From positions 7,768 to 71,767 of the forward strand of contig CAYQYZ010000004.1 of the NCBI GenBank assembly GCA_964422025.1: 64,000 bases of DNA. Direction: 5' to 3'. The DNA is from an uncultured Gammaproteobacteria bacterium. Its GTDB lineage: Bacteria > Patescibacteriota > Microgenomatia > UBA1406 > HO2-37-13b. Under the pieces are notes generated by a model that worked only from the letters and a program-made list of their open reading frames with translations, searched no databases and was not told where the DNA came from. A program made the position numbers and the translations under genes. Below, one piece after another: positions 10,301 through 54,067 of this stretch (its first letter is position 1; the number at the start of each line of letters is the position of its first letter).

Positions 10301-10302
10301 TA

Positions 10303-10308
10303 TATAAT
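10303..10308 (+). promoter_or_regulatory. -10 hexamer TATAAT 6 nt upstream of the ATG at 10315 (predicted leaderless)
   Basis: TATAAT-ACACTT-ATG; no SD. Confidence 0.4.
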
Positions 10309-10314
10309 ACACTT

Positions 10315-14899: not shown

Positions 14900-15869
14900 T
14901 AATACAACCTCGAAGGTTGAACACGCACTACCAACCTCGAAGGTTGTCAAATCAGCCGTTATAGTAGTAAAAGATTACCCGGAACATATTTTCAAAACGC
15001 TCGATTCAGTTCGCTCTTTTGTAGATGAGGTAGTCATTGGCGATATTGGTATTGATGAGGAGCTGTTGGCGAAGCTGAAAAAGATTGAGAATATAAAAAT
15101 AGTTACTGTTACAAAAAAAGTTCCCTATGTTGAATTAATTCGTGAGGAGTTGCATGCGCAAGCAAAAGGAGACTATATTTTAGTTCTTGATTCGGATGAG
15201 ATTGTTCCATCTGCTCTCGCCACCCTGTTGGACTCGGCAGTAGGGAAGTATGACTATGTAAAAGTTCCCCGAAAGAATATTATTTTTGGAAAGTGGATTG
15301 AACATTCACGCTGGTGGCCTGATTATCAAGTGAGATTTTTTAAGAAAGGCTCAGTTGTATGGCCTAAGGTGCTTCATGCACAACCTAAAGCTGAAGGAAG
15401 CGAGCTCATAATCGAACCCAAGGAGGAGAATGCACTTGTTCATTATAATTACAGGGATCTGGATGAATACCTCTCAAAAGCTCCACGGTATGCAAAGGCA
15501 GAGGCGGCAGGGATCCTGAAACAAGTTCAGGATGACAATACTGCTCAAAGTGATACGAGCTTTACCTTCTTTGGTAAAAAAGCGCTGTCTGAGTTTGTTG
15601 GACGATACTTTGCGGATGATGGATATAAAGATGGCATGCATGGATTTGTATTGGCATTCTTGCAAATGATGTATTACTTTCTAGTGTATTTCTATGTATG
15701 GGAATTGGGAGGAAGAAAAGAAGTAGAACAAAAAAGTCTTTTACAGGGCACAGTGCAATTCTTTTCGGATGCATTGTATGAAATAAGTTTCTGGGGAAAG
15801 AAAAAAGGTTTGAGTAATATTTCATTTGTAAAATCGAAATTACATAACTTAGTCCGTAAGTTGTCATGA
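14892..15869 (+). CDS. GT2 glycosyltransferase (paralog of 30144..30998)
   Basis: DSDE (DxD) motif, PRKNIIFGKWIEHSRWWPDYQVRFF block shared with 30144; ATG at 14892 overlaps the flippase stop; contains family-1 and family-2 repeat copies in frame. Confidence 0.8.
   Translation: MNNNTTSKVEHALPTSKVVKSAVIVVKDYPEHIFKTLDSVRSFVDEVVIGDIGIDEELLAKLKKIENIKIVTVTKKVPYVELIREELHAQAKGDYILVLDSDEIVPSALATLLDSAVGKYDYVKVPRKNIIFGKWIEHSRWWPDYQVRFFKKGSVVWPKVLHAQPKAEGSELIIEPKEENALVHYNYRDLDEYLSKAPRYAKAEAAGILKQVQDDNTAQSDTSFTFFGKKALSEFVGRYFADDGYKDGMHGFVLAFLQMMYYFLVYFYVWELGGRKEVEQKSLLQGTVQFFSDALYEISFWGKKKGLSNISFVKSKLHNLVRKLS
14905..14946 (+). repeat. double-hairpin repeat, family 1, copy B (inside CDS)
   Basis: CAACCTCGAAGGTTG-AACACGCACTAC-CAACCTCGAAGGTTG; translated in frame as TTSKVEHALPTSKVV at the N-terminus of the GT2. 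Confidence 0.85.
15511..15537 (+). repeat. hairpin repeat, family 2, copy a (inside CDS)
   Basis: GGATCCTGAAACAAGTTCAGGATGACA; 8-bp inverted repeat ATCCTGAA/TTCAGGAT; read as GILKQVQDD. Confidence 0.85.
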
Positions 15870-17512
15870 AAAAAATATCTGACTATATCTCCTCGCATAA
15901 ACATTTATGTATTGCTGCGGTTGTGTTTTTTTTACTCCGACTACTTTTTTTAGATCAACTATTTTTACTGCATGATGAACGAGATATTGTTCTATCAGGG
16001 TACTCCGTTGCAAAAACTGGACACGATTTATTTGGGAACTTTTTACCAATAAGTTTTGCCGGAATTAGTCCAGATAATCCACTTGTATCGATTTATTATT
16101 CTGCCGTTTGGTGGCTTGTATTGCCGATTAAATCGGTCTTCTTTGCTCGTTTACCGTTTGTATTAATCTCCACGCTGCTCATGTTCTTGGTGTACGAGAT
16201 AGTACGAAGAATTTCGGATGATAAAAGATTGGCGTTTACTTCTGCACTTATATTCTGTTTTTCACCATGGGTGTTTCATGTAACACGACTTGCGATGGAT
16301 TTGCCCTTGGCCGCAGTCACTCTCTTTGGATCCATACTTTTTTACTTGAAGGGGAAAAGATGGTTATCGTATTTACTTTTTTTTCTTACATTTTATAATT
16401 ATCAGGGTTTTCGAGTAGTGATTCCATTCTTGATAGTGTATTTGGAATTGATTAAAGGTGAGTCGGAGATCCTTCGTTTCACTCAGGATGACATAAAGAT
16501 CTTTATACGAAGAAATATTACTAATGTGATGTTTATTGTTTTCCTTTTTGTATCGATTTCATTCATAGATAAAGCGGTTACTGCAAAACGATTTTCACAA
16601 GTAGCTTTCTTAAGTCCTGAACGGTTTACAGCAGAGGTGAATACTCGTCGTGCAGCATCGAACGTTCCATTATTAATTCGAGATGCATTTCATAATAAAA
16701 TAACCGTTGCAGCAGACTATGTAATTGATAACTTTGTTAAAGGGCAGGACATTTCATACTTATTTAAAACCGGGGATTATAGCCCAATTAATGGAAATGC
16801 AGTTGGAGGACAATTTTTCTTTGTATTCTTACTATTCTTTTATTTGGGAATCATGGCGCTCGGGCGTCGGCTTAACAGAAAAGATTTTTATTTAATTGGA
16901 TTTATTTTTCTGGGACTCCTTCCGGCAATGGCATCAGTAAATAGTGCAACGTATTCGATTAGGGGATTTGTGTCGGCACTAGGATATGCATATTTGTTGT
17001 CGTTGGGAGTTGATTTGGGAATTGATCTGACTAAAAGAATGACCAAGACTCCTCGCTACATACTCTACGCGCTCCTTATGATAGTGATGGTCGTTAACGG
17101 ATTGTATTTTACGTATAACTTTTATGAGAGAAAACAGGTAGCGGTGGGAGAGTTATTTAATGAGAGTGAAAAGAGAGTTTCACAATATTTGCTCGATCGT
17201 CCTGAAAAACAATTTACCGTGTATCACGACTTTCCAAAGAATGTCTATCTTTCATATATATTTATGGATAGTGGAAACTCTGCTCCACAAGTTACGGGTA
17301 AAGATGGTGAGGTAGATTCCTACGCATCCAACAATGTTGTATTTGTGAAGTGCCCAAAGCTTATTGACTACGCGACACTTACAAATACGCTCGTTTCCGA
17401 ATCGTGCATGAATCTGAAAACGCATGATCAATTAAATAGCCAAGTCGACTTACAACAAAAGATTCTGTATAAGGATTTATCGCTCAAGACTGCGTATTTT
17501 ATATTTGAGTAG
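15866..17512 (+). CDS. PMT_2/ArnT-like GT-C membrane glycosyltransferase
   Basis: 548 aa multi-TM; first loop LHDERDIVLSGYSVAKTGHDLFGNFLP; ATGA overlap with the upstream GT2. Confidence 0.75.
   Translation: MKKISDYISSHKHLCIAAVVFFLLRLLFLDQLFLLHDERDIVLSGYSVAKTGHDLFGNFLPISFAGISPDNPLVSIYYSAVWWLVLPIKSVFFARLPFVLISTLLMFLVYEIVRRISDDKRLAFTSALIFCFSPWVFHVTRLAMDLPLAAVTLFGSILFYLKGKRWLSYLLFFLTFYNYQGFRVVIPFLIVYLELIKGESEILRFTQDDIKIFIRRNITNVMFIVFLFVSISFIDKAVTAKRFSQVAFLSPERFTAEVNTRRAASNVPLLIRDAFHNKITVAADYVIDNFVKGQDISYLFKTGDYSPINGNAVGGQFFFVFLLFFYLGIMALGRRLNRKDFYLIGFIFLGLLPAMASVNSATYSIRGFVSALGYAYLLSLGVDLGIDLTKRMTKTPRYILYALLMIVMVVNGLYFTYNFYERKQVAVGELFNESEKRVSQYLLDRPEKQFTVYHDFPKNVYLSYIFMDSGNSAPQVTGKDGEVDSYASNNVVFVKCPKLIDYATLTNTLVSESCMNLKTHDQLNSQVDLQQKILYKDLSLKTAYFIFE
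16466..16493 (+). repeat. hairpin repeat, family 2, copy b (inside CDS)
   Basis: GAGATCCTTCGTTTCACTCAGGATGACA, read as EILRFTQDD. Confidence 0.75.
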
Positions 17513-17652
17513 CGAGCTAAGAGTCATTGAGAGATCTGCTCAGAACCGGCATTCCAGTCAGATGAAACAGGTGGTTTAATAAATTTGGTTAGGAGCTTGC
17601 TCCATAGATATTATCGAGCGTGAGATTGTCAATTCTCGAGGTTAGAGGACTT

Positions 17653-18975
17653 TTATTGATATAATTCAAGCCAGTAATGACCCTGTGCTGTCTGTACTGT
17701 TCCTGATTTTAATAATATTTTCAGTGTATCTTGAATTAATCTATTTGAAATCGATCTCCCCAGTATGCCGCTTGCAACTTCATGAATATGAGTTGTGGAA
17801 ACTGGTTCACCTAAGAGTTTAAGGGCTTCTATAATTAAACTACCTTTTTGTGCGCTGGTAAGAGTGTTCGCATGTGAAGAACTATTTCTCAGCTTGTCGA
17901 TGAGTGTCGAGACACTTACGGGTTGAGCTAATAGAAATTTACCTCTATATGCTTTATCTCGAAGTTCTTGATCTGATGCACTTTGAAATTCGTAGACTGT
18001 TGATACGAGATTGTAAATAGTACTGCGCTGTTGGGGCGTAAGACTAATTTGTGCAAATCCATCTTTTTTGTTAAGTAATCCTGTTTCAACCGTGCCTTGT
18101 AAAAGTTGTCTTTGAATAGTTTGCGTTACTGCTGTTCGTAATCTTGCTGGATCATGCTGATAATAATCTCCATATTGATCGTAGATACCGTCGCAAATTT
18201 GATCGATCGAAACATATTCATCCTGTGAACTAAGAAAGTCGATTACAGACTGTGTTAATCCTAAAGCGGTCTTTCTCTCAGCTTTAGGTTTGTCTGGATT
18301 GATTCTATACATCGTCTTTACTCCGTCTGTTTTTCGTGTAATTATATGATTAGCGCCAAGATTTTGTAGCTGAGCAATAAGCGAATCTTCTGGTGCTTCC
18401 AGGTCGTGATGTATTTGCACCTGACTAACAGGTAAAGTTGCAGTTACAAGTGCCCAATATATTTCGAACCTATTACTTGGCCCTCTTTTTTTCATTAAAA
18501 CCGTCTCACCTTCTACTACTCGTTCATATGCTGTTACAACTGATGCTGCACTTCCTAGCATATCCCGTAAGGATACGTGAGGATGGGCTAATGAATATGC
18601 AAGCATGTCGCTTGCAAATGGGATTCCATATTTTTTTCCAAATTCAGTAAGCTCATATCCGTTTGACCTTCCAGTTGTCGGATCAATAAGTTCTCTATCT
18701 AAGAAACCAACTCCAGCTAAAGTATCTAAATGAACTTGAACTAAATTATCCATAGGCCATCTTTCAGAATCTTCGCCGCGTAATTCATGTAGTCGTTTTG
18801 AAATTTCAGGAGGTGTCCAAATACCCGTTTCCATAACACATACAATTAGAGCTTTTATCTCATTATTTCCTGCACCCGCCAAAAGTAACTCCATACCTTC
18901 TTTCGAAATTCCTTTTTGGACTTCTGGATAACCTTCGGAATATTGATGTGGGACTGGACGAGATTCTAGAGGCAT
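17653..18975 (-). CDS. cytoplasmic protein with several winged-helix-like repeats, unknown function
   Basis: 440 aa, no TM; repeated helix-turn-helix-like units ending in short beta-hairpins (e.g. GYELTEFGKKY, TMYRINPDKP, GHYWLELYQ); monocistronic, flanked by non-coding DNA. Confidence 0.6.
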   Translation of the reverse strand: MPLESRPVPHQYSEGYPEVQKGISKEGMELLLAGAGNNEIKALIVCVMETGIWTPPEISKRLHELRGEDSERWPMDNLVQVHLDTLAGVGFLDRELIDPTTGRSNGYELTEFGKKYGIPFASDMLAYSLAHPHVSLRDMLGSAASVVTAYERVVEGETVLMKKRGPSNRFEIYWALVTATLPVSQVQIHHDLEAPEDSLIAQLQNLGANHIITRKTDGVKTMYRINPDKPKAERKTALGLTQSVIDFLSSQDEYVSIDQICDGIYDQYGDYYQHDPARLRTAVTQTIQRQLLQGTVETGLLNKKDGFAQISLTPQQRSTIYNLVSTVYEFQSASDQELRDKAYRGKFLLAQPVSVSTLIDKLRNSSSHANTLTSAQKGSLIIEALKLLGEPVSTTHIHEVASGILGRSISNRLIQDTLKILLKSGTVQTAQGHYWLELYQ

Positions 18976-19052
18976 AGTTTGGAATACTGTGGCGGGCTAA
19001 TTAATGCTCAATTATATCACAAGATATCAGATATGAAGGTGAGAGAGTGGAC

Positions 19053-20741
19053 TTAGTTTAGTTTTGGATAATGTAGGTATTTATTCAACAAATGAAACTT
19101 CTTTTCTAAGTAATATGCAAGAATAAATCCCAAGAAGGCTGCGACAGAAATGATATTACCCAATGTTCGAACTTTTGTATTGGTGAATTTGAGGTAAATA
19201 TCATGCTTGCCTGCAGGAACGTTATAGGTGATTACTCCTCGATAATCAGGGTCTTGGAATTGAATTTCGACTGGTTGGCCATCGACCCACACTTTCCACC
19301 CTGGAAAATAAAATGTGTAGTCGACCATTCGAGTTTCTGTTTCATTTTCTACAGTATATTTTCGCCAAGAATTTGACAGTTCGCTCTTTACCACCTTTCC
19401 AGTGCCTCCAATGATTCCAACTTTTTCAGGATGAACCGGATAATCGACTGTCTCTCCGGTCCACACGGTGTTCATGTTGGTGGAATGGAGATTAATTACG
19501 GTAAATAGATACCGACTCATTGGATGATTGGTGTTGTTTTTACTATATAGTTGTGGGAAACGCGTAATTGCAAAAAATGCGATTAAACAAAATGCCGCGA
19601 TATGCATGACTTTTACATTCGTCTTGTTGAGGAGGTATGCGACGATAATAGGTGGAAGGAAAATAAAGAGCGATAACATTCTCCAAGGAAACTGAATATT
19701 ACTTAGTAGATTTATTTTTTGATAAAAAATGAGGGCATAGTCCGTAGTGAAAATGAGCGTTACAAGGCTCACAAGAACGGTTAAATCGAGAAGATCGGGT
19801 TTCCATTTTCTATTGCGAAGAACTCTCCCTAATACGAACAACACTCCTACCGCGACAATAATAACTTCGAATAATCCTGGTGTTACAAAATGTCCGCGAT
19901 TCAAAATATCTCTTTCCAGATAGTAATACCAATTAGGATCTATGAAGTTATTCAAATGAAGGGTTTGTCCGGGTGTTAAATGATTTCCACGACCGTAATA
20001 AAAATACTTAATTTCAATTTGAAGGGGAAGTAAATAATAAGCCGCCATGAGAAGTCCCCATGCCATAAGAAATCCAGAGAGTAAAAAGGGTCGGATTTTA
20101 TCTTTTTCATCTTTTAATAAGAAGAAAAAGTATGGAACAACGATAAACATTGAAACAACTAACATCATGGGGTGACTTAACGCCAAGCCGGCCATGGCGA
20201 TTGTTAAAAATGGAATTGCCCACAATTTCCTCTCCTTTATTAGGTAGTATAGTGCCATGAGAACAAGGGGGAAAAATACGGATGCAAAAAATTCTGGTAA
20301 CGCCTCTCGAATGTACAAGTTAAGAATTCTGTACGGAGCGACGTTATACAAAAAGACTGCAACGAACGAGGCTAGCGGAACAAAGTAAATTCTAAGAAAT
20401 CGATAAAAAATGACGTTTGACAAAACAGTGGCGATAAGCGCAACAATTTTCCAGGAAGTTATGGTGTTATTGGTAATGAGCGTAATCCACGCTCCCAAGT
20501 ATGAAATTAGCTGGTGAGCGACCATAGGAACCGGCATGCCGTAATTTGCAAACCAATTTGACCAGGTGGGCTTTAAATCGCCTGAAAGCATGGCGCGGTA
20601 AAACTGGGTTATGGTGGTAATATGAACGCGGCCGTCCATGTGAGCACTGTGGCCGTTGTTAAAGAAGAGATCGAAGACAAGGAGAGCGGAAATGAGAACA
20701 ATCAGCGAGATGTAGATTTTGTCGATTTTTTCTTTGAACAT
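19053..20741 (-). CDS. polytopic membrane protein, GT-C-like paralog family III
   Basis: Paralog of 11823..13481 (FQFPWRMLSLFIF; YFPGWKVWVDGQPVEI); ATG at 20741 has GGAAG SD 6 nt upstream; track start 20753 is TTG. Confidence 0.7.
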   Translation of the reverse strand: MFKEKIDKIYISLIVLISALLVFDLFFNNGHSAHMDGRVHITTITQFYRAMLSGDLKPTWSNWFANYGMPVPMVAHQLISYLGAWITLITNNTITSWKIVALIATVLSNVIFYRFLRIYFVPLASFVAVFLYNVAPYRILNLYIREALPEFFASVFFPLVLMALYYLIKERKLWAIPFLTIAMAGLALSHPMMLVVSMFIVVPYFFFLLKDEKDKIRPFLLSGFLMAWGLLMAAYYLLPLQIEIKYFYYGRGNHLTPGQTLHLNNFIDPNWYYYLERDILNRGHFVTPGLFEVIIVAVGVLFVLGRVLRNRKWKPDLLDLTVLVSLVTLIFTTDYALIFYQKINLLSNIQFPWRMLSLFIFLPPIIVAYLLNKTNVKVMHIAAFCLIAFFAITRFPQLYSKNNTNHPMSRYLFTVINLHSTNMNTVWTGETVDYPVHPEKVGIIGGTGKVVKSELSNSWRKYTVENETETRMVDYTFYFPGWKVWVDGQPVEIQFQDPDYRGVITYNVPAGKHDIYLKFTNTKVRTLGNIISVAAFLGFILAYYLEKKFHLLNKYLHYPKLN

Positions 20742-20785
20742 ATTGACTTCCAAATTCTTAAAAACAATTATATACTACATACAGA

Positions 20786-21376
20786 ATGAAAAATATAGAG
20801 AGAAAATATGTGCTGATTGTTGGGATCGTGATTCTGGGATTATTTGTGTTTACGCAGCCCAAGCTCTCAGCCTACCTGTTCCCATTTAAGCGACAGGCTA
20901 TGTGGAGAGAGTTTAAGCAGACTGTCATTGATGCTCGTGGTATTGAAGGACAAACCTTCTGGAAATTTCGCGAATTTTATTACCCCGGGTCATTTACATT
21001 TGAGCCAAATGGGTTTGGGAAAGAACTAACTGCGCAAAAGGCAAAAGAACTCTCTATTACTCTCTTGCCACAGGCAACCGCAAGTGCATTTTTGATTTAC
21101 GAATCAGGGAAGTTTAATAGCTTGGAAGCGCTGGTGAATCCAGGAGACTTGGCTGCAACCGTGAAAGATAATGGACCAATCCAATCATCAAATGAAGGAT
21201 CTTTTGATGGATCGTACACTATGTATGTGTCAGGTAATAAAGCGCGCATTATGTTTATAAAGCCAGTTTCTGAAATGGTAAAGGCGAACGGGTATTTTGA
21301 TTTGAAAAATAAACAGGATGCCGCGAGAATTGAGGGGAAATATTGGCTGAGCGTAAGCGAAGTTGAATTAGATTAA
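20786..21376 (+). CDS. membrane-anchored/secreted hypothetical protein
   Basis: N-terminal TM (YVLIVGIVILGLFVF) then a soluble domain; TATACT box (20771-20776) 9 nt upstream of the ATG. Confidence 0.65.
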   Translation: MKNIERKYVLIVGIVILGLFVFTQPKLSAYLFPFKRQAMWREFKQTVIDARGIEGQTFWKFREFYYPGSFTFEPNGFGKELTAQKAKELSITLLPQATASAFLIYESGKFNSLEALVNPGDLAATVKDNGPIQSSNEGSFDGSYTMYVSGNKARIMFIKPVSEMVKANGYFDLKNKQDAARIEGKYWLSVSEVELD

Positions 21377-21378
21377 TT

Positions 21379-21513
21379 ATGGAATATCCATTATTAAACA
21401 ATACGCCTAAGGGGCTTGACAGTTCCCGTAGGAAGCCCTTATTAATCCTAATACTTGTTTTCTTCGCAATGATAATCCTTGGAGTTATTCTTAATTTGCC
21501 TTATATATGGTAA
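21379..21513 (+). CDS. possible 44-aa single-TM micro-protein (below the ORF-track cutoff)
   Basis: ATG 2 nt after the stop of the 20786 gene; MEYPLLNNTPKGLDSSRRKPLLILILVFFAMIILGVILNLPYIW; basic stretch then a clean TM helix. Confidence 0.35.
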   Translation: MEYPLLNNTPKGLDSSRRKPLLILILVFFAMIILGVILNLPYIW

Positions 21514-23188: not shown

Positions 23189-24037
23189 ATGGCAGGAATC
23201 GCAATCATAACGGTGGTGTATAAGAATTATACGGTACTTGAGGACTTCATGGAGAGTATTCGAAAGCAGAAAGATACGGATTTTAAGTTGTTTATCGTGG
23301 ATCTAACTGAGAATGCGGTGAGTGTGCTTGATGCGAAAACCTTCGAGGATCCTAAAAAGGGATCCCGAAACGAGTTCGGGATGACAGTTCTACACTCTGC
23401 GAACAAAGGCTATGCGCATGGAATTAACGTCGGTTTAAAAAAAGCGATCGATGAAGGGTTTGAAAAATTCTGCGTAATGAATAGCGATACGTATTTTAAA
23501 GAAAACTTTGTGTCGTCAATTTCTGATTTTTTGATTGCGCATCCACGAACAATTGGAGGCGGGAAAATATACTATGCTGATGGTTTTGAGTATCACAAAG
23601 AATATGCAAAAAATGATTTGGGAAATGTGATTTGGTTTGCCGGGGGGAAAATAGATTGGAATCACGTAATCACCTCTCACGTGGGCGTTGATGAGGTGGA
23701 CGAAGGGCAGTTTAATGAAGAAAAAGAAGTGGATTTTTTAACGGGGTGTATGATGTTTTTTGACAAAGCTGCGTTGGATGTAGTGGGTTTTTGGGACGAG
23801 TCGTACTTTTTATATTATGAAGATGCAGATTGGAGTGTTCGCGCAATAAAGGCGGGCGTACGACTGGTGTACACTCCACGGGTTACCTTGTGGCATAAGA
23901 ATGCACAATCGACTGATGGGGCGGGTTCAAGTATTCATACAAAATATCAGGAAAAGAATCAGGTTAAATTTGGACTTGCGTACGCTCCTTTGCGAACTAA
24001 ACTACACTTACTAAAAAACTTATTCTGGCACAATTAG
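23189..24037 (+). CDS. GT2 glycosyltransferase (rhamnosyltransferase-like subfamily)
   Basis: IAIITVVYKNY start, NSDT (DxD-equivalent), YYEDADWSVRAIKAGV block shared with 32028..32864 (YWEDVDLSLRAKKRGW). Confidence 0.85.
   Translation: MAGIAIITVVYKNYTVLEDFMESIRKQKDTDFKLFIVDLTENAVSVLDAKTFEDPKKGSRNEFGMTVLHSANKGYAHGINVGLKKAIDEGFEKFCVMNSDTYFKENFVSSISDFLIAHPRTIGGGKIYYADGFEYHKEYAKNDLGNVIWFAGGKIDWNHVITSHVGVDEVDEGQFNEEKEVDFLTGCMMFFDKAALDVVGFWDESYFLYYEDADWSVRAIKAGVRLVYTPRVTLWHKNAQSTDGAGSSIHTKYQEKNQVKFGLAYAPLRTKLHLLKNLFWHN
23338..23386 (+). repeat. composite repeat: family-1 half site plus family 2 copy c (inside CDS)
   Basis: AACCTTCGAGG-ATCCTAAAAAGG-GATCCCGAAACGAGTTCGGGATGACA; read as TFEDPKKGSRNEFGMT. 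Confidence 0.75.
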
Positions 24038-24520
24038 CGTTTGTCCGGGTTCAAGTTCAAATGTATTGGGGCTTTTAAACGAATTAAACGGATAGTTTAC
24101 GATATTCATAGGATCAACTTTGTATTTGTCTGCAATCGTATAAACGGTCTCTCCTTGTGCGACGGTATGTAAGTATCCAGATACCGGCAAAATAGTGAGT
24201 TTCATTCCTGGTTCAACTTCTGAGTCAGTAGGAATTTCATTTGCTTTTGTTATTGTAGACTGCGAAATAGTAAAGGCTTTTGCAATTGCCTCAAGTGAAT
24301 CACCGTGTTGAGTTGTATAAAAGATAACTTCCCGACGGGGGGTTACAGATGTGGGTATGACGTGTTTAATTGATGGAGAAGCTTCTTCAACTTTGGTGGT
24401 AGGATTACTAGTTAATTTTCCCACGAAAAATACAAATGTTGCGACTAAAAGCATAAGAAGAAAAAAAGGAGTATTGTCTCCGCTCGAACCCCCGCTGTCA
24501 TGAGAACCGTGAGTTGCCAT
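24020..24520 (-). CDS. membrane-anchored protein with two LysM domains
   Basis: TM (FFLLMLLVATFVFFV), then two LysM-like units (YTTQHGDSLEAIAKAF...ANEI; HTVAQGETVYTIADKYKV...IVNYP). Confidence 0.85.
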   Translation of the reverse strand: MATHGSHDSGGSSGDNTPFFLLMLLVATFVFFVGKLTSNPTTKVEEASPSIKHVIPTSVTPRREVIFYTTQHGDSLEAIAKAFTISQSTITKANEIPTDSEVEPGMKLTILPVSGYLHTVAQGETVYTIADKYKVDPMNIVNYPFNSFKSPNTFELEPGQTLIVPE

Positions 24521-25604: not shown

Positions 25605-25605
25605 A

Positions 25606-27084: not shown

Positions 27085-28560
27085 GGGTGGAAAGTGTGGT
27101 TGCCATACATAATTTTGTTCCTTCTATTCGTTTATTTTAGAGCAAAACCCATTCATTATCAAACGGTACCGTACACGTACGACCAGGGGCGCGATTTTTT
27201 AAAGGCTGAAGAAATTGTGCGATTCAAAAATCCTACATTTATTGGACCGACTACTGGAATCGCCGGAGTGAATCATGGGGTGTGGTGGTATTACTTTTTG
27301 GCGGGAAACTATGCGGTGTTTGGTGGAAACCCAAGCGGATTTTATTGGGGAGTGCTCATTATGATGCTTATTAGTACAATTTTGTTTACCGCTTTTTTGA
27401 AAAAGGAATTCGGGAACTATATCGCATTGATCTTTTTATTAGTAGTAACAGTATCGCCGTACTTTGTTGGGATTTCGATATTTGCAGGAAATAATATTTT
27501 GGCACCTCCGTTTGTTTTACTATTTATTTATAGTGCGTATAACCTCTTCAAGTACGGTGGCGGTAAGTATATTTTTTTGACAGCGTTCTCACTAAGTATG
27601 ATCTTCGAATCAGAAATGCCATTTGGGATTTTTATAATTCCATCTTTCTTCGTAGCGAGCATTCTCTTTGCGGAGCTACGAAAAGTATATAGAAGTCGAA
27701 ATTCTCTTCTCGCACTCCTTGCAGGACTTATGCTGCCATTCGCTTTCAGAATTCTGTTCGAAATTAAACACAATTTTTCACAGATAAAAGGCATTATTGC
27801 ATTTTTTAATAATCCGTCGGCTACACATACGCAGAAATTCAGCGGTATTGTTCATGATCGGGCAGTATTATTCTTGAGTTATTTTAAGGAGATTTTTTAT
27901 GATAATAATTCATTATTGGTCTTTTCGGCAATATTACTCATACTGTCGCTATTAATTTGTCGATTCAAAACACTTTCTTCATTCAATCAAAAAATATTCA
28001 GATTCTTTATGAGCATGATCGCGCTTATTTTTATGTTCTCACTTGTATACCGAAACAATTTTTTCTGGGACTATTATTTAGAAGGAATCCAGTATTTACT
28101 CCTATTCCCTATGTTGTTACTTTTGTACAGTATTAAAGAATCAAAGAAGTTAATTGTCGCTGTACTCATTTTTTACTCAGTGCTAGTGGGAGCGAAAACT
28201 CATTACGAGTTGAACAACCATGCGGTACCAACAGTCGGGCTGCGAGCTGATATTGCAACGGTCGAGCAGGTATATTTAATAGTAGGAAAAGAAGATTTCT
28301 GTGCGCGAATTTATACTCCGCCCGTGGTTCCCAATACTTATAATTATTTGTTTCATTACTACAATTTAAGAGGGTATAAAGTTCCGCTTGAGAATCCGGT
28401 CAATGACAAATGCATGATTATTGTAGATTCTGATGAATATGTATTTCGGATCGACGAGTGGCGTAAGATGAATATTCCAAATAACTATGTAATGGTATCG
28501 AGTCACAGAATGCAGAACAAAACGCTAATTGAGTTGTGGCAGAAACCTAACGGAAAATAA
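27064..28560 (+). CDS. polytopic GT-C-like membrane glycosyltransferase, paralog family II
   Basis: YTYDQGRDFLKAEEIV and LFEIKHNF motifs shared with 6654 and 28547; 5' end overlaps the divergent 25606..27084 gene by 21 nt. Confidence 0.7.
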   Translation: MTTNKLHGWKVWLPYIILFLLFVYFRAKPIHYQTVPYTYDQGRDFLKAEEIVRFKNPTFIGPTTGIAGVNHGVWWYYFLAGNYAVFGGNPSGFYWGVLIMMLISTILFTAFLKKEFGNYIALIFLLVVTVSPYFVGISIFAGNNILAPPFVLLFIYSAYNLFKYGGGKYIFLTAFSLSMIFESEMPFGIFIIPSFFVASILFAELRKVYRSRNSLLALLAGLMLPFAFRILFEIKHNFSQIKGIIAFFNNPSATHTQKFSGIVHDRAVLFLSYFKEIFYDNNSLLVFSAILLILSLLICRFKTLSSFNQKIFRFFMSMIALIFMFSLVYRNNFFWDYYLEGIQYLLLFPMLLLLYSIKESKKLIVAVLIFYSVLVGAKTHYELNNHAVPTVGLRADIATVEQVYLIVGKEDFCARIYTPPVVPNTYNYLFHYYNLRGYKVPLENPVNDKCMIIVDSDEYVFRIDEWRKMNIPNNYVMVSSHRMQNKTLIELWQKPNGK

Positions 28561-30091
28561 TGGTATGAAGTAGATTGGGATCCGGGGCAACTCGGACTTC
28601 TTCGGGTGTAAGGTCGTACTCCTCAATATAAAAATTGGAATTGTATTTATGTATTAGGTTGGGTTTGCGATCAATTTTAACTTGTCCAGCCTTCCACCAC
28701 TTTTCATTTGTATACGGGTGGTCATGAGCAGGGAATGTAAGTAGATATGTTTTCTCGCTTTTTTGAAACGGTTTAGCGATCTTGTTTTCATTCGCCTTTT
28801 GAGCATAATTCATAGCGTATCGTGACGAATAACCAAATTGGTCAGCAGTGTAAATAAAATATCCGAACTCCGACGGGGCCGACGCAAAAATATCTTGGGC
28901 AGGTTTGTAGTAGTATTGCCACGTTCCACCTGTTTTTCCGGTTCCAATATACGCACTAGCCTTATAGCTATCTTTTGTAAGATTAATAACATTGAATCCT
29001 AGTAATAATATATATGCTACGAAAAAAATTCTTTTGTCGATCAACTTATACGTTGATGCAATAAGGATAATAAGCAGAGGAGTAAGTGGCCAATAATAAT
29101 AACTCCAAATGACTCCTTTAAAGATTAGAGTACATGCCCAAAAGCCAATATAGAAACTTCCAATAAGAAAATATATGAGCTTGTCATTAAAGGTTTTCTT
29201 GTGACTCACGAGGCCGGCAATAATTGTGGTCCATGTTGCTGCAATTAATAGCGGGAAGTTATGTCCGATAAATGAAATGCCACTTCTAGTGAATCCCTGC
29301 ATTCTGTCATATAGAAATTTACTCGTTGAGGTGTGTACCTTCCCAGCGTTTTCAACCCCAGTGAGGAAATTAATGACTGATCGTACTTGAAGGAAGTCGT
29401 GTTTTATTTCGAATAAAATGTAACTTGAAAGAGGTAGGATAATTGTAGACATAAAAAGAATGTGTTTAAACTCTTTCTTTTTGCCAATGTGAAACAGTAC
29501 TATGCATGTGGTGATAAGTGCAATTGGCACCCCAAAAGCCATTTGGAATTGAATTAGGAGACCGAGTATGAAATATGTTACCGCAAGATAAACTCCTTTA
29601 TTTTCCTTAATATACAAGTATAAAAAATACAGAAAAAGTGGACTTAGGTATACGGCCCCAGAAGGATTAAAAGAATCTTTTACCAATCCCGCAGTTGTAA
29701 ATGTATATAGCAAAGTGCTTAAGTACGCAACTTCTGCTCCAAACATTTTTTTTGAAACATGCCACATTCCCCAGACGCTCGCAATGAAAAATAATAGCCA
29801 GCCCCACGCTACTATGACTGGATTACCATTTCCAATTACAAATGCAGGAATGTTAATATATAGCCATAACGGGCCATGAAAAACTCCTGGAATACCCCCT
29901 GCCCGTGGGCCGATCAATGTAAGAGGCTTTACGTGTACAATGTCTTCTAGTAACAAAAAATCACGAGCAATGTCGGTATGAAAAGTGAGATCGTTATGTA
30001 AGAAAAACCATGATCCTAAAAAAATACCAAACAGAATAAGTATAAGCGATAGTTTTTGAGGCAAAGACGAGATGTTTCTTATTTTGTGCAT
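28547..30091 (-). CDS. polytopic GT-C-like membrane glycosyltransferase, paralog family II
   Basis: FHTDIARDFLLLEDIV and LFEIKHDF motifs; 514 aa multi-TM. Confidence 0.7.
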   Translation of the reverse strand: MHKIRNISSLPQKLSLILILFGIFLGSWFFLHNDLTFHTDIARDFLLLEDIVHVKPLTLIGPRAGGIPGVFHGPLWLYINIPAFVIGNGNPVIVAWGWLLFFIASVWGMWHVSKKMFGAEVAYLSTLLYTFTTAGLVKDSFNPSGAVYLSPLFLYFLYLYIKENKGVYLAVTYFILGLLIQFQMAFGVPIALITTCIVLFHIGKKKEFKHILFMSTIILPLSSYILFEIKHDFLQVRSVINFLTGVENAGKVHTSTSKFLYDRMQGFTRSGISFIGHNFPLLIAATWTTIIAGLVSHKKTFNDKLIYFLIGSFYIGFWACTLIFKGVIWSYYYWPLTPLLIILIASTYKLIDKRIFFVAYILLLGFNVINLTKDSYKASAYIGTGKTGGTWQYYYKPAQDIFASAPSEFGYFIYTADQFGYSSRYAMNYAQKANENKIAKPFQKSEKTYLLTFPAHDHPYTNEKWWKAGQVKIDRKPNLIHKYNSNFYIEEYDLTPEEVRVAPDPNLLHTIIFR

Positions 30092-30143
30092 GTATAGAGT
30101 AGAATAATACTATCAATGCGATTCGTGATTATCAATAAGTAAA

Positions 30144-30998
30144 ATGGACAAAAAAATAACCGTCTTAATTCAAGCGTATAACGAGCAAGAGGAGATTGTG
30201 GAGTGTATAAAAAGCGCCCGTTTACTCAGTCACACTATAATTGTAGTAGATACCGAGAGTACTGATAAAACAGTTTCGTTGGCCAAAGAGCAGAATGTTA
30301 CGGTACATTCATTCCCGTATTCACGGTATGTAGAGCCTGCGAGAAACTTTGGTATCGAAAAGGTTAAGACCGAATGGGTATTTTTGTTGGATGTGGATGA
30401 GAGATTGACAGAGGAGTTGGCGGGGGAGATTGTGGGGATCCTGATCCGCCATGGGCGGAAAGTTCAGGATGACAAGGGTGTGGCTCAAGGTGACCCTCCT
30501 TCGCTCTCCGAGCTACGGGAGGGCAAGCAAGATATTACGTACTACAAACTCCGACGGAAAAATATTTTTGCTGGGAAAAAATGGCTTCAGTATGGCGGGT
30601 GGAATTCAGTAACGGATTATCAGACACGTCTGATTAAAAAAAGCGCATTTAAAGAATGGCCACAAGCGATTCACTCGACTCCTATTATTGAGGGTGAAGC
30701 GGGCCTGCTCAAAGAGCCATTACTACATTATTTTCACAAGAATTTAGAAACGATGGTTGCAAAAACTGCGGTGTATGAAGATGTTGAATCGGATCTTTTA
30801 TTTAAGGCAGGAAAGCCGGTTTCAACCGCCACGTTCTTTAGAAAGTTTTTAGGGGAATTATATCGACGTTTTTTTAAGTTTCAAGGATTTCGGGACGGAA
30901 CATTGGGAGTTATTGAATCGGTGTATCAGGCTTTTTCAAAAACAATAACCTATTTATTTTTGTATGAAAAGTATCATGAAAAAAATTCTAATCGTTGA
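30144..30998 (+). CDS. GT2 glycosyltransferase (paralog of 14892..15869) carrying a ~30-aa repeat-derived insertion
   Basis: ITVLIQAYNEQEEI, VVDTESTDKT, LLDVDE motifs; insertion IRHGRKVQDDKGVAQGDPPSLSELREGKQ is absent from the paralog. Confidence 0.85.
   Translation: MDKKITVLIQAYNEQEEIVECIKSARLLSHTIIVVDTESTDKTVSLAKEQNVTVHSFPYSRYVEPARNFGIEKVKTEWVFLLDVDERLTEELAGEIVGILIRHGRKVQDDKGVAQGDPPSLSELREGKQDITYYKLRRKNIFAGKKWLQYGGWNSVTDYQTRLIKKSAFKEWPQAIHSTPIIEGEAGLLKEPLLHYFHKNLETMVAKTAVYEDVESDLLFKAGKPVSTATFFRKFLGELYRRFFKFQGFRDGTLGVIESVYQAFSKTITYLFLYEKYHEKNSNR
30436..30523 (+). repeat. hairpin repeat, family 2, copy d, long form (inside CDS)
   Basis: GGATCCTGA-TCCGCCATGGGCGGA-AAGTTCAGGATGACA nested hairpins, then CCCTCC...GGGAGGG hairpin. 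Confidence 0.8.
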
Positions 30999-32031
30999 TC
31001 CATATTTAGATGTTTTTGGAGGAGGGGAGAAACATATTCTTTCGATTGGAAAAGTATTTGAAAAACATGGATATGAGGTATCGTTGTATTGGAATGATGA
31101 AAAGATTCTTACGCAACTCTCTGAAACGCTTAAAATCGACACGCACTCTTTTACCATCGAAAAAGAGAAAAGAAAAGGGGAAGGGTATGATGTTTTGCTA
31201 TATGTAACCGATGGAAGTTATTTTATTCCAAAAGCTAAAAAGAATTATGTATTTTGCATGTATCCTCAAAAATCAATTTATGCGAGTTCCCTACTGAATA
31301 AAGTGAAATGGAGAGGGTGGAATTTTTTTGCAAATTCAGAATTTACTGCCAGTTACATTTCTAAATGGGTGGGGAAGAAGACGGGAGTTGTACACCCATT
31401 TATTGAAGATGCAATTTTTGATGCGTACTCTCCTATTGAAAAAAAAGAAAAAGTGATTTTGTCGGTGGGAAGATTTTTTAGACATTTACATGCAAAAAAT
31501 CAGCATTTGTTAGTTGAGGCGTTTAACTTTCTGCAATCACGTCACTCAGAGTTTGAGGATTTCAAATTGGTATTAGTTGGTTCAGTAAAAAAAGAAGATG
31601 AAGAATATTTTGAAGAAGTGAAATTATTGGCACAGGGAAATGAGAATATTGTTTTGGTAAAAAACGCGCCATATTCAGAATGGTTACAGCATTACAAGAC
31701 TTCCATATTTTATTGGCACGCAGCGGGGTTGGGAGCGGATTTGAATGTACATCCGGAAGCGACGGAGCACTTAGGAATTTCAGTTTTGGAAGCAATGATT
31801 GCCGGGTGTATTACATTTGCTCATAATTCCGGTGGTCCAAAAGAAACAATTGAAAATGGAAAGACAGGGTTTTTGTATGATACGATTGAAGAGTTAGTTA
31901 GTAAGACGGCGGAAGTGCTCTCTAAGAGCCCTGCTCTCCAAGAAGTATCAACAGCGGCAAAGGAATATGGAGAACAAAATTTTTCAAGTGAGGGGTTTAA
32001 AAGAAAAGTTGAAGAATATTTTAATCTATGA
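30964..32031 (+). CDS. GT4 (group 1) glycosyltransferase
   Basis: GT-B C-terminal signature EHLGISVLEAMIAGCITFAHNSGGPKETIENGKTGFLY; start may be the ATG at 30976 (MKKILIVD). Confidence 0.88.
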   Translation: MKSIMKKILIVDPYLDVFGGGEKHILSIGKVFEKHGYEVSLYWNDEKILTQLSETLKIDTHSFTIEKEKRKGEGYDVLLYVTDGSYFIPKAKKNYVFCMYPQKSIYASSLLNKVKWRGWNFFANSEFTASYISKWVGKKTGVVHPFIEDAIFDAYSPIEKKEKVILSVGRFFRHLHAKNQHLLVEAFNFLQSRHSEFEDFKLVLVGSVKKEDEEYFEEVKLLAQGNENIVLVKNAPYSEWLQHYKTSIFYWHAAGLGADLNVHPEATEHLGISVLEAMIAGCITFAHNSGGPKETIENGKTGFLYDTIEELVSKTAEVLSKSPALQEVSTAAKEYGEQNFSSEGFKRKVEEYFNL

Positions 32032-32864
32032 AAATTTCAGTAATCATTCCGGTTTATAAAAATAAGGAACTTTTGAAAAAAAGTTTTGAAAATAATTATG
32101 AATTTTTGAAAGGATGTGAAATTATTGTGGTAAACGATTTTCCGGATGAGTCGATTGCGGATGTGTTTGAAAAATATTCTGATGTGAAACAAATTGTGAA
32201 TGAAAAAAATATGGGATTTGCAAATACCGTGAATCGTGGTGCAAAAGAAGCTTTGGGTGATTTATTATTCTTGTTAAATTCAGATGTCATTTTGAAAAAT
32301 GATTCATACAAAAAAGCAATAAAACATTTTGAAGAAAATGAAAAATTATTCGCAGTAAGTTTTGCACAAATTGAGCAAGACGGAAAAACAGTAGGAAAGA
32401 ATAGGGTATTTTTTCAGAATGGATTTATTATGCATGAGAAAGCCAGAGATCTCTTATTTGGACCTACCGGTTGGGCGGAAGGTGGAACGTGTGTTATACG
32501 GAGAGTATATTTTGAAAAACTTGGCGGATTTGATGGGGCATACTCCCCTTTTTATTGGGAGGACGTTGACCTATCGTTGCGAGCTAAAAAGCGTGGGTGG
32601 GATGTTATTTTTGATCCGGAGATATTAGTCGAACATCATCACGCTTCAACAATTGGAAAATATTACAAAGATGATTTTCGAGAACTGATCTCTTATCGGA
32701 ATCAGTTTATATGTACATGGAAGAATGCGATGGGTTCACAGAGAATTTCACATGCACTCCATTTGCCGTTTATATTGGTAAAATCTATAATCACCGGAAA
32801 TTGGAATTTAGTGAAAGGATTTTTTAAGGCAATTCTGGTAACCTCGGAGGTGGAACATGCCTAG
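32028..32864 (+). CDS. GT2 glycosyltransferase
   Basis: ISVIIPVYKNKELL, VVNDFPDES, LNSDV, YWEDVDLSLRAKKRGW; the last 8 codons and the TAG stop lie in family-1 repeat copy C. Confidence 0.88.
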   Translation: MKISVIIPVYKNKELLKKSFENNYEFLKGCEIIVVNDFPDESIADVFEKYSDVKQIVNEKNMGFANTVNRGAKEALGDLLFLLNSDVILKNDSYKKAIKHFEENEKLFAVSFAQIEQDGKTVGKNRVFFQNGFIMHEKARDLLFGPTGWAEGGTCVIRRVYFEKLGGFDGAYSPFYWEDVDLSLRAKKRGWDVIFDPEILVEHHHASTIGKYYKDDFRELISYRNQFICTWKNAMGSQRISHALHLPFILVKSIITGNWNLVKGFFKAILVTSEVEHA

Positions 32865-32880
32865 TCAACCTCGGAGGTTG
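32837..32880 (+). repeat. double-hairpin repeat, family 1, copy C
   Basis: GGTAACCTCGGAGGTGGAACATGCCTAGTCAACCTCGGAGGTTG followed by TTTT; ends 10 nt before the ATG at 32890. Confidence 0.85.
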
Positions 32881-32889
32881 TTTTAGCAT

Positions 32890-34518
32890 ATGAAAACAAA
32901 ATTAATACTACTTGGAATAATTGTTTTGACAGTCCTTTTACATGTTGTGAAAGTAAAGTCGCTTCCTGTCTGCTTGAATGCAGATGAGGCTGCATTTGGA
33001 TATAACGCGTATAGTCTCTTGAAGACGGGAAAAGATGAATATGGCGCCATGCTCCCATTAAGACTTAAATCCTTTGGAGATTATAAACTTCCATTATATT
33101 CATATCTCTCAGTTCCCTTTATTGGTGCAATGGGACTCACAGAAACTTCAACCCGCGCACTTGCGATGCTGATTGGAATTCTATTCCCATTAGTAGTATA
33201 TTTTTTGACAAAAGAATTATTTGAGGATGAACGGATTTCTTTGCTTGCGGCGTTTCTAACAGGCGTTTCCCCGTGGATCCAAATCACCGCTCGGCATGCA
33301 CATGAAGCACCATTGGCAGTATTTCTACTAACCATAGCCGCAACGTTACTGCTAAGATTTATTAAAACTAGTGAGAAAAAATATTTGTATTGGTTTGCGT
33401 TTGTAGAATTGATGAGTTTATTTGCATATCACTTAAGCAGACCAATTGTATTGGGGATGATTGTGTATTTGGGAGTTGTACTCTTATTAAGGAGAAAACA
33501 CCTAGATCCTTCGACTCGTCGTACCTCCTCGCTCAGGATGACAAGCCGACTTATTGCCGCGGCATTATTACCTTTAGTGGTATTTACGTTTACTGACGTT
33601 TTATATAATCCAACTCGGTTAAAAAATTTGATTTTCTTTAATGACGGGGGATTCAAACTTTCAATTAAACAAAAGTTGACAGAAAAGAATTTGCCAATTA
33701 TTTACAATCCGGTAACACAAAGCTTGTTGGATTTACCTAAAGAATACATAAAGTATTTCTCACCAGAATTTTTAGTTGTTCATGGTGACACGAATTATCG
33801 ATTTGGCTATCCGGGAATCTCTCTCATCTCTCTCGTCGAGTACGGCATGGTGTTTGTGGGGTTATATTTCCTAATAAATAAGCGGCCAAAAAATATGTCG
33901 TACATCCTCTTTTTACTCCTCATTGGACCTGTTGCCGCGTCACTTTCTTTTTTTGAATATTCAGCAACACGATCGATATTCATGGTGGTTCCGATGTTAA
34001 TTATTGCATCATATGGAGCGATTTCATTAGTCAATTCTCTTACTCGCCGTTACAGAGTATGGGCGGCTGTACTTCTTTTTGTTGCATTTGGATTCTTTAA
34101 TTTTATGACCTGGGACTTTTACTTTTTTCATTACCCATACAGAGCGGTCACTGTACGATCGTGGCAATGTGGATACAAAGAACTTGCACAATATGTAAAT
34201 ACTAATTACGATAAATTTGAGAAATTTAATATTACAACTCGAAATGGGGAACCATATATTTTCATGCTGTTTTATTCAAAGTATCCACCGGAATTATATC
34301 AGAAACAGGCCACACTCTCTCCACCTGACGAGTATGGGTTTGGACAAGTATGGAAGTTTGATAAATACGATTTTCAATTTAATGTAGATCATCCAAAAGA
34401 GGGGACTTCGTATATTGGATATCCGGAGCATTTCAAAGATAAAGCAGATATTGACACTTCTAAGATTCAGAAAATAACTGCAGGGACAGAAGAGATGTTT
34501 TATATATACGAACCGTAA
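32890..34518 (+). CDS. PMT/ArnT-like (GT39-type) GT-C membrane glycosyltransferase
   Basis: 542 aa multi-TM; first-loop motif CLNADEAAFGYNAYSLLKTGKDEYG; soluble C-terminal domain. Confidence 0.8.
   Translation: MKTKLILLGIIVLTVLLHVVKVKSLPVCLNADEAAFGYNAYSLLKTGKDEYGAMLPLRLKSFGDYKLPLYSYLSVPFIGAMGLTETSTRALAMLIGILFPLVVYFLTKELFEDERISLLAAFLTGVSPWIQITARHAHEAPLAVFLLTIAATLLLRFIKTSEKKYLYWFAFVELMSLFAYHLSRPIVLGMIVYLGVVLLLRRKHLDPSTRRTSSLRMTSRLIAAALLPLVVFTFTDVLYNPTRLKNLIFFNDGGFKLSIKQKLTEKNLPIIYNPVTQSLLDLPKEYIKYFSPEFLVVHGDTNYRFGYPGISLISLVEYGMVFVGLYFLINKRPKNMSYILFLLLIGPVAASLSFFEYSATRSIFMVVPMLIIASYGAISLVNSLTRRYRVWAAVLLFVAFGFFNFMTWDFYFFHYPYRAVTVRSWQCGYKELAQYVNTNYDKFEKFNITTRNGEPYIFMLFYSKYPPELYQKQATLSPPDEYGFGQVWKFDKYDFQFNVDHPKEGTSYIGYPEHFKDKADIDTSKIQKITAGTEEMFYIYEP
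33504..33544 (+). repeat. hairpin repeat, family 2, copy e (inside CDS)
   Basis: AGATCCTTCGACTCGTCGTACCTCCTCGCTCAGGATGACA, read as LDPSTRRTSSLRMT in a predicted loop. Confidence 0.75.
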
Positions 34519-49690: not shown

Positions 49691-49713
49691 CGTATGAGTA
49701 AGTTGAGACAGGC

Positions 49714-49744
49714 GGAGATTCTTCGCTAACGCTCAGAATGACAA
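49714..49744 (+). repeat. hairpin repeat, family 2, copy f (rpoC-rpsL spacer)
   Basis: GGAGATTCTTCGCTAACGCTCAGAATGACA, degenerate copy of the GAGATCCTTCG...CTCAGGATGACA form. Confidence 0.6.
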
Positions 49745-49753
49745 ACAAAGATT

Positions 49754-54055: not shown

Positions 54056-54067
54056 ATGATTAGAGCT

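Follow-up and report, generated by a model that had tools for sequence, protein, structure and literature searches.

Hairpin repeats, probably CGTC-tagged REPs, within glycosyltransferase genes and at gene ends of a Roizmanbacteria-like bacterium

A stretch of 64,000 nucleotides from an uncultured bacterium (contig CAYQYZ010000004.1 of assembly GCA_964422025.1; the whole stretch is referred to here as the window) contains short hairpin repeats, several of which lie inside glycosyltransferase genes and are read through in frame, and the question that this locus raises is whether such units are parts of the proteins that carry them, signals that the host maintains, or DNA that spreads on its own account and is tolerated. 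The window looks like part of the genome of a Roizmanbacteria-like member of the Microgenomates (candidate phyla radiation, CPR; Patescibacteria) by protein similarity, its ribosomal protein S12 being 83% identical to a homologue named by its source as Candidatus Roizmanbacteria and one of its GT39-like proteins (GT, glycosyltransferase) being 96% identical to a protein named 'Microgenomates group bacterium'. We consider it probable that the units are repetitive extragenic palindromic sequences (REPs) bearing a CGTC or TGTC tag, that one of their two subtypes, type A, corresponds to the published family CGTC-2, and that they persist where they are tolerated; we further propose that they spread as non-autonomous DNA.

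The superfamily of CGTC-tagged REPs was defined by Di Nocera, De Gregorio & Rocco (2013, BMC Genomics 14:522; PMC3733652), and the accessible text of that paper describes a CGTC tag (often TGTC or CCTC), a stem of 8-9 bp starting with A-T/T-A, a loop of 4-5 nt and a 3-nt tail; families 1 and 2 have 8-bp stems, families 2 to 4 have 5-nt loops, and the consensus tail is CCA. The same text reports mostly inverted dimers, intragenic copies, enlarged loops in some species and no dedicated transposase, with occurrences in alpha-Proteobacteria, Chlorobi, Bacteroidetes, Spirochaetes and Thermotogae (PMC3733652). Read on the minus strand, the window unit is TGTC-ATCCTGAA-CTTGT-TTCAGGAT-CTC, in which ATCCTGAA/TTCAGGAT is the 8-bp stem of type A, and the features found are thus a tag of TGTC or CGTC, a stem of 8 bp with A-T/T-A at its start, a loop of 5 nt and no adjoining transposase. 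The tag is TGTC in seven of the nine units (a degenerate unit at 54096-54120 included), CGTC at 49665 and GGTC at 54068, and the 3-nt tail is CTC, CCC or CTA. Translated in antisense, the type A core, GATCCTGAAACAAGTTCAGAATG, gives RHSELVSGS, a peptide that the 2013 text gives as an intragenic CGTC-2 product in the Sulfurovum ferredoxin-like protein SUN_0512 (PMC3733652), and antisense type A peptides matching the published CGTC-2 kind were obtained from other genomes as well. On this geometry and this peptide match we therefore take type A to be CGTC-2. Type B is placed provisionally in the superfamily by its common flanks, stem start and 28-nt length, and matched no family in the published text available.

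The motif TCAGGATGACA, with at most one mismatch, has eight matches in the window, all eight on the plus strand, against an expectation of 0.85, and none of 100 shuffles reached eight; the bounded form ATCCTGA..TCAGGAT has three matches where 0.01 would arise by chance. These matches, the reading of sites and a scan for a hairpin followed by ATGAC give a total of nine units, the extent of each being defined as tail, stem-loop-stem and GACA. Since a relaxed scan of the window for a hairpin followed by TGAC found matches no more frequently than in shuffled sequence, only the nine units listed below are claimed. An earlier note on this DNA had listed seven copies, all in one orientation: all of its coordinates are right and the single orientation extends to nine of nine units, with none on the minus strand, but two units (49665-49692 and the degenerate 54096-54120) had been overlooked. 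The nine units are as follows.

15510-15537, plus strand: type A, GGGATCCTGAAACAAGTTCAGGATGACA; in frame in the GT2 gene 14868-15869; encodes GILKQVQDD.
16466-16493, plus strand: type B, GAGATCCTTCGTTTCACTCAGGATGACA; in frame in the PMT_2/GT39-like gene 15866-17512; encodes EILRFTQDD.
23359-23386, plus strand: type A, GGGATCCCGAAACGAGTTCGGGATGACA; in frame in the GT2 gene 23189-24037; encodes GSRNEFGMT.
30435-30474, plus strand: 40-nt composite, type A whose loop contains the nested palindrome TCCGCCATGGGCGGA; within the GT2 gene 30144-30998; encodes GILIRHGRKVQDD.
33503-33543, plus strand: 41-nt type B with an enlarged loop; in the PMT_2 gene 32890-34518; encodes LDPSTRRTSSLRMT.
49665-49692, plus strand: perfect type A, GAGATTCCGAAACAAGTTCGGAATGACG; at the 3' end of an rpoC-like open reading frame (ORF); its TGA at 49688-49690 is the stop codon.
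49715-49743, plus strand: type B, GAGATTCTTCGCTAACGCTCAGAATGACA; 10 nt upstream of the rpsL start.
54068-54095, plus strand: type A, GAGATCCTGAAACAAGTTCAGGATGACC; between two minus-strand ORFs and antisense to their transcripts.
54096-54120, plus strand: degenerate 3' part of a unit (..CGACTTCGTTATGTTCAAGATGACA), abutting unit 54068-54095.

Both subtypes are 28 nt long. Type A is GAG/GGG-ATYCYGAA-ACRAG-TTCRGRAT-GACA, with a perfect 8-bp stem and a 5-nt loop (ACAAG or ACGAG), and type B is GAG-ATYCT-TCG...CTC-AGRAT-GACA; with the composite and enlarged-loop forms, unit lengths are 28, 40 or 41 nt, none of them divisible by 3. As single-stranded DNA, type A units fold with -6.5 to -7.7 kcal/mol and z-scores of -3.2 to -4.0 (-6.5 kcal/mol and z -3.5 for unit 15510, z -4.0 for unit 54068), the composite unit 30435 folds with -11.7 kcal/mol (z -4.6), and the degenerate unit 54096-54120 has no stable fold. 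Readings of the unit as a tRNA T-arm, a C/D box or K-turn, a promoter (by the -35-like ATGACA) or a Shine-Dalgarno sequence with ATG were dropped, as the sequence gave them no support; at gathering thresholds Rfam matched only three tRNAs in the window, and a permissive Rfam scan of 49600-49800 gave chance C/D-box-like matches only. The literature searched held no record of the unit's exact nucleotide strings or signature peptides.

Two observations concern the surroundings of individual units. The insert in the GT2 gene runs on past unit 30435 through 30475-30530 with GGTGTGGCTCAAGGTGACCCTCCTTCGCTCTCCGAGCTACGGGAGGG (GVAQGDPPSLSELREG), which contains ..CTCAAGGTGAC and then CCCTCCTTCG.., and this segment resembles what would be left of additional units whose stem was ACCCT/AGGGT, possibly those that the earlier note had called family 1. 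On the minus strand, a listed ORF of 91 aa (53807-54082) begins at a TTG within unit 54068 (N-terminus MFQDLSS..); it more probably starts at the ATG further downstream (MNKTNW..), an example of units distorting ORF calls.

The family is by no means confined to this lineage. Among the matches listed, over 120 stretches of species-representative genomes contain the 25-nt core of type A exactly, and they belong to Patescibacteria, Treponema, Sphingomonadaceae, Bacteroidota, Ignavibacteria, Melainabacteria, Elusimicrobia, Sulfurovaceae and others. In 135 copies compared across phyla, both variable stem positions are Watson-Crick paired in 129, and ATGAC is followed by A in 69 and by G in 51, which gives TGTC or CGTC on the minus strand in 89%; an inverted partner lies within 90 nt of 62 copies and a direct partner of only 12, and the minus-strand tail is CCA (TGG on the plus strand) in 15, sphingomonad copies among them. 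Plasmid matches to a 30-mer were found by BLAST in sphingomonad, Treponema and Sulfurovum replicons, the best of them within a Sulfurovum 4Fe-4S protein gene. Although the same 30-mer had no convincing match among GenBank phages, the exact type A core is present in 66 viral contigs of IMG/VR (L135-L200), several with two to four copies (e.g. L157), in which terminase, portal, capsid and tail genes recur, and the exact type B core is present in 38 more (L201-L238). Such phage contigs offer a route between phyla, but are no evidence of transfer itself. No gene family recurs beside the units at 120 genome loci, or at 186 loci when viral ones are included; a Pfam search of 10 window ORFs that were otherwise unassigned yielded no transposase, and no REP-associated tyrosine transposase (RAYT) was found within the window or beside the 135 copies. 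The family is thus common to many bacterial phyla and to phage contigs, with no transposase gene alongside. In one Ignavibacterium metagenome-assembled genome (L025, 1440-1680) we also observed a tandem array that repeats every 82 nt, with two opposed units per period that have different, covarying stems (GCT/AGC and CCC/GGG); a CRISPR reading of this array was rejected, since its 'spacers' are identical and each period is two opposed hairpins, which makes it similar to bacterial interspersed mosaic elements (BIMEs).

The units resemble CGTC-2 in tag, stem, loop, the 3-nt length of the tail, intragenic copies and lack of an associated transposase, and the core occurs in Sphingomonads, Sulfurovum, Bacteroidetes, Spirochaetes and Chlorobi/Ignavibacteria. 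They differ in that Patescibacteria/CPR, Melainabacteria and Elusimicrobia lie outside the five phyla that the accessible 2013 text names, in having CTC or CCC tails in the window where the published consensus is CCA, in occurring in the window singly or as direct pairs where the published elements are mostly inverted dimers, and in their high genic share, five of the nine window units lying wholly within coding sequences and a sixth overlapping the rpoC 3' end; moreover, the type B, enlarged-loop and composite forms do not fall obviously within the four families as that text describes them. The earlier note had drawn an analogy to the Rickettsia palindromic elements (RPEs; Ogata et al., 2000/2002, as cited in the accessible parts of PMC3733652 and PMC10969869), and the relationship is in fact closer than analogy, for RPE-6 and RPE-4 of Rickettsia conorii are equated in the available text with CGTC-1 and CGTC-4 and stand in the same superfamily (PMC3733652). 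Like RPEs, the window units are palindromic repeats read through in frame in functional genes and absent from orthologues, and relatives of the 15866 protein have CGTC-1 peptides (DSRFRGN.., SFPRRRES) in the corresponding loop, the intragenic CGTC-1 peptides given in the 2013 text being DSRFRGND, VIPAKAGI and WIPAFTGMT (PMC3733652). Unlike them, the window units are CGTC-2-like, a distinction drawn from the family equation in the published text and not from a comparison of consensus sequences; Rickettsia is an obligate intracellular alpha-proteobacterium, whereas the window host is free-living or episymbiotic, and elements of the RPE-1 type (about 100-150 bp) have no counterpart in the window.

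With the GTAG-tagged REPs and the REPINs (paired REPs) the units share the form of dispersed tagged hairpins of 20-40 nt that are often arranged as inverted doublets or arrays, as the doublets and the 82-nt array illustrate for the CGTC core elsewhere; their termini can likewise donate stop codons, and the recognition of a hairpin in single-stranded DNA provides a natural model. The tag, however, is TGTC or CGTC in the window in place of GTAG or GTGG, neither a RAYT nor any other recurrent gene was found beside units of the window type, and REPINs are lineage-specific and co-diverge with their RAYT, whereas the CGTC-type sequence is conserved across phyla. Bacterial miniature inverted-repeat transposable elements (Correia/NEMIS, ERIC, RUP, Nezha and others) span 70-300+ bp, with terminal inverted repeats derived from insertion sequences and with target-site duplications (PMC10969869); they too are non-coding, multi-copy, hairpin-forming and sometimes fused in frame with ORFs, but the window unit is a single 28-nt hairpin related to neither terminal inverted repeats nor insertion sequences, with no duplication detected.

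The genes that carry the genic units are listed below. Pfam assigned the five glycosyltransferase genes, with scores near the cut-off for some of them, and the domain match runs across the unit in two of the five.

14868-15869, plus strand: GT2 gene carrying unit 15510.
15866-17512, plus strand: PMT_2/GT39-like gene carrying unit 16466.
23189-24037, plus strand: GT2 gene carrying unit 23359.
30144-30998, plus strand: GT2 gene carrying unit 30435.
32890-34518, plus strand: PMT_2/GT39-like gene carrying unit 33503.
45620-49690, plus strand: rpoC-like ORF, whose last eight codons and stop codon derive from unit 49665.

That the units are additions to real genes, as the earlier note had proposed, is borne out by the continuity of the reading frame through them, by homologues that do not have the segments, and by confident AlphaFold models of two hosts. 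In the case of the 15866 protein, more than 40 homologues (about 45% identity) have no insert and run from ..LIYLELFF.IK. directly to K...FIK.N.; inserts are found only in close relatives, and these differ (EILRFTQDD, EISHYVRDD.., ILHRHPAVQND.., IRKQVQDD.., the antisense SFPRRRES, and MDSRFRGNE). The 14868 protein is 7 aa longer at unit 15510 than all 35 of the 35 homologues aligned. In the 30144 protein the unit lies in a hypervariable hotspot between DADERIT.ELA.EI and THYKIPRKNIF, at which some Roizmanbacteria homologues have none and others one or two units of various subtypes. The models have overall predicted local distance difference test (pLDDT) scores of 86 for the GT2 30144 protein, with the insert in a helix extension and disordered segment (residues 112-127, pLDDT <50), and of 88 for the GT39-like 15866 protein, with residues 200-209 at the turn that links helix 181-204 to helix 207-234, pLDDT falling there to 71. 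The inserts occupy variable loops or turns predicted with low confidence, and are missing from more distant orthologues.

The placement of five of the six genic copies in glycosyltransferase genes, together with the different inserts found in the same loops of different relatives, which could be read as diversifying selection, might suggest that the units are selected protein modules, whose peptides, or recombination between them, diversify the surface-glycan machinery. We regard this explanation, which the earlier note had suggested, as highly improbable. The enrichment is not significant (P about 0.07), GT-like genes occupying about 26 kb of the window, and the statement that all hosts are surface-glycan enzymes fails at unit 49665, which overlaps the 3' end of the rpoC-like ORF. 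The encoded peptides vary with the frame (QDD versus GMT/RMT) and share no property, and in the models the inserts appear in low-confidence loop or turn segments away from conserved motifs. Conservation is moreover at the nucleotide level, a unit being identical at 28 of 28 positions where the gene is 88% identical, and the identical 25-mer occurs in unrelated genes, intergenic DNA, phages and many phyla; the proposed role in glycosylation thus finds no support, either in the position of the inserts or in the distribution of the family.

The reading frames themselves are as had been noted, CAG-GAT-GAC (QDD) at 15510, 16466 and 30435 and GMT or RMT at 23359 and 33503, and in the ATCCTGA variant just one sense frame is open. 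The further claim that the third frame, which reads TGA, is never used does not hold, since the TGA at 49688-49690 of unit 49665 is the stop codon of rpoC, and in two relatives (L134 and L122) the TGA of a unit is the stop of the upstream GT1 gene at the junction equivalent to 32028 of the window; in the window and L124 this junction has no unit and the two genes overlap at ATGA. Relatives here are syntenic loci of about 80-95% nucleotide identity to the window. The frame pattern had been put down to selection for ORF preservation after insertion; as an argument this is largely circular, because a copy read in the TGA frame cannot lie inside an intact coding sequence, and the stop frame is used at gene ends. 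As the TGA frame is used where a stop is tolerated, the pattern is one of survivorship and not a property of the element, and the frame distribution reflects the loss of disruptive copies.

The junction between rpoC and rpsL illustrates what tolerance may look like at a gene end. In the window it holds two units and the spacer is 63 nt, whereas L127 and L128 have no unit, unit 49715 being likewise absent, a shorter rpoC, and a spacer of only 7 nt or 1 nt. The acidic C-terminal tail of rpoC (window 49200-49690, L127 and L128) is highly variable, with protein lengths of 1288, 1336 and 1356 aa, and is a tolerant region in which a unit became the new gene end. Separately, three S12 homologues (P0121, P0123 and P0129) are over-long, with internal S12 duplications, and come from very short contigs; they were rejected as unit-derived extensions, being internally duplicated S12 and probably assembly chimeras. 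Taken as a whole, the units persist in this gene-dense genome only where tolerated: in variable loops of GT-A and GT-C enzymes, in the dispensable acidic tail of rpoC, and in short spacers.

Such positions close behind a gene (downstream of rpoC and ahead of rpsL, or, in relatives, where the GT1 gene ends) are frequent, and REPs are situated mostly downstream of ORFs according to the accessible 2013 text (PMC3733652). Together with the covariation of the stem (129 of 135 copies paired) and the conservation of the unpaired tag and tail across phyla, they could indicate cis-acting signals selected by the host, such as mRNA stabilisers, sites of mRNA processing, pauses in translation, or sites to which gyrase or nucleoid proteins bind, as has been proposed for the REPs and BIMEs of E. 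coli. We think this improbable, for presence or absence varies among relatives at 85-95% nucleotide identity with no compensating feature, neither copy number nor position is conserved, and copies run both with and against transcription; L127 and L128, moreover, do without a unit between rpoC and rpsL, where a required signal should have been kept.

What the relatives show is turnover at occupied sites. At 15510 the window has a type A unit, L131 has this unit too, its loop extended by an 18-nt palindromic insertion, and L132 and L133 have type B with a different, covarying stem (GAGACTCTTCGCTCTGCTCAGAGTGACA); between the window and L132, 13 of the 28 unit positions differ against a gene-wide divergence of 15% (P about 8e-5). 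At 16466, by contrast, the unit is 28/28 identical in three genomes (window, L131 and L132) whose host genes are 88-95% identical. The unit at 23359 is missing from L131, L124 and L126, the window being longer there by a net 12 nt, and is a 40-nt composite in L134; site 30435 carries the composite in the window and L134 and type B at exactly that position in L122, L124 and L126, the last with an extra tandem copy whose stem covaries (ACCCT/AGGGT versus ATTCT/AGAAT). Site 33503 has a longer version in L122, and the 32028 junction has three different units in L134, L122 and L126. The occupied sites are thus hotspots, at which subtype swaps, nested loop palindromes or tandem duplications are seen in close relatives.

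Hairpins could in principle arise repeatedly at such sites with no element moving, by template switching on quasi-palindromes or by short-patch conversion. The 'empty' site GGATCCTG of L131 and L124, compared with GGATCCT...GGGATCCCGAAAC in the window, does in part resemble a unit, the comparison of GAAACAGAATAA in L127 with GAAACAAGTTCGGAATGA in the window is of the same sort, and units replace sequence instead of merely adding to it. The more than 120 stretches among the matches listed, however, hold identical 25-mers with conserved loop and unpaired flanks in unrelated phyla, and local palindrome correction therefore cannot be their source; distinct subtypes also recur at several loci, the composite with TCCGCCnnnGGCGGA in its loop being found at three different loci at least. 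Local origin is accordingly very unlikely indeed.

Two larger differences in gene content were noticed in the same comparisons. A cassette of about 1.4-1.7 kb is present in L131 (2213-3896) and L132 (2566-3977), at the equivalent of window 10300-10315, and is absent from the window; it encodes small membrane-like ORFs with no Pfam family, and Pfam found no transposase among the ORFs of this unit-flanked cassette. Units of the superfamily lie on both sides in L131, an inverted pair included, and were detected at the right end only in L132; units may mark indel hotspots. The other is a 440-aa ORF on the minus strand (17653-18975), with no Pfam family (sub-threshold DUF4777 only), flanked by the GT39-like gene and by the GT-C gene that follows; it is missing from the syntenic L131, L124 and L122, in which its two flanking genes adjoin, and it looks, from this synteny, like a recent gene insertion.

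The bias towards one strand is not limited to the nine units. Non-orthologous sites in the window and its relatives number 17 on the plus strand against 2 on the minus (P 7e-4), and the plus orientation holds even for the two units between minus-strand ORFs (54068 and 54096). GC skew is positive across nearly the whole window, and the plus strand is therefore probably the leading strand.

We suggest that the units spread as non-autonomous DNA, that a trans-acting enzyme would recognise single-stranded DNA folded into the tagged hairpin, as RAYT does with GTAG REPs, that new units would prefer to land in or to replace existing ones, and that insertion may be coupled to replication, which would account for the strand bias of the lineage. 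A more specific proposal, which we put forward as possible but doubtful, is that units are exchanged in place by a unit-targeting mechanism (homing, or short-patch conversion at the GAGA...TGACA ends) that acts on one DNA strand during replication.

Several points weigh against the interpretation of the units as spreading CGTC-type REPs. With regard to identity, the assignment of type A to CGTC-2 is made from the text description in the accessible part of the 2013 paper and from the peptide match, not from a consensus alignment. For type B, stability as single-stranded DNA equals that of shuffled sequence (z about 0 with standard parameters) and the predicted fold has only 5 bp; its full putative stem, ATCCT/AGGAT with G.A, A.G and G-C, would include a tandem mismatch, needs non-canonical pairs and was assigned by eye. 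With regard to insertion, net length changes relative to empty sites are +12 and +21 nt, and unit lengths are not multiples of 3; a simple, clean insertion in frame is thus not what these sites show. Site 23359 has a unit of 28 nt in place of about 16 nt, and at 33503 the loop in L124 and L126 has the same length, is unrelated and has no recognisable unit; simple insertion is therefore not valid for every site. Comparison of filled with empty sites yielded no clean junction flanked by a target-site duplication, and at three places (the rpoC-rpsL junction, the 32028 junction and site 23359) no duplication is visible. With regard to spread, orientation across phyla is unrelated to local GC skew (60:71) or coding strand (64:67), and the strand bias is therefore specific to the lineage, or else to units that stand singly and not as inverted dimers; the idea of replication-coupled insertion rests on one lineage and one syntenic region of about 40 kb. 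Transposition of the units by a mobilising enzyme is putative.

In summary, the window provides a new host and a clear example of an element class already described, and not a new kind of element. Its main value lies in correct placement, the repeats previously termed hairpin family 2 belonging to the CGTC-tagged REP superfamily that also holds RPE-4 and RPE-6. Relative to the 2013 description, as far as its accessible text goes, the occurrence in CPR/Patescibacteria, in other phyla and in bona fide phage contigs is an extension, as are the nearly single-strand placement within a lineage and the presence of different subtypes, nested palindromes or nothing at one site in close relatives, a pattern that points to turnover targeted at occupied sites. 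For annotation, the units account for recurrent odd peptides (ILKQVQDD, EILRFAQDD, SRNKFGMT and DSRFRGND) and for shifted stop codons. CPR genomes are typically only about 1 Mb in size. A small gene set of the kind typical of CPR bacteria, together with the visible recent turnover, would make this lineage a practical one in which to look for the enzyme that spreads CGTC REPs, which the papers of 2013, 2018 and 2025 consulted do not name. If exchange in place does occur, intersecting the small gene sets of CPR bacteria or phages with the presence of units could reveal this long-missing enzyme.

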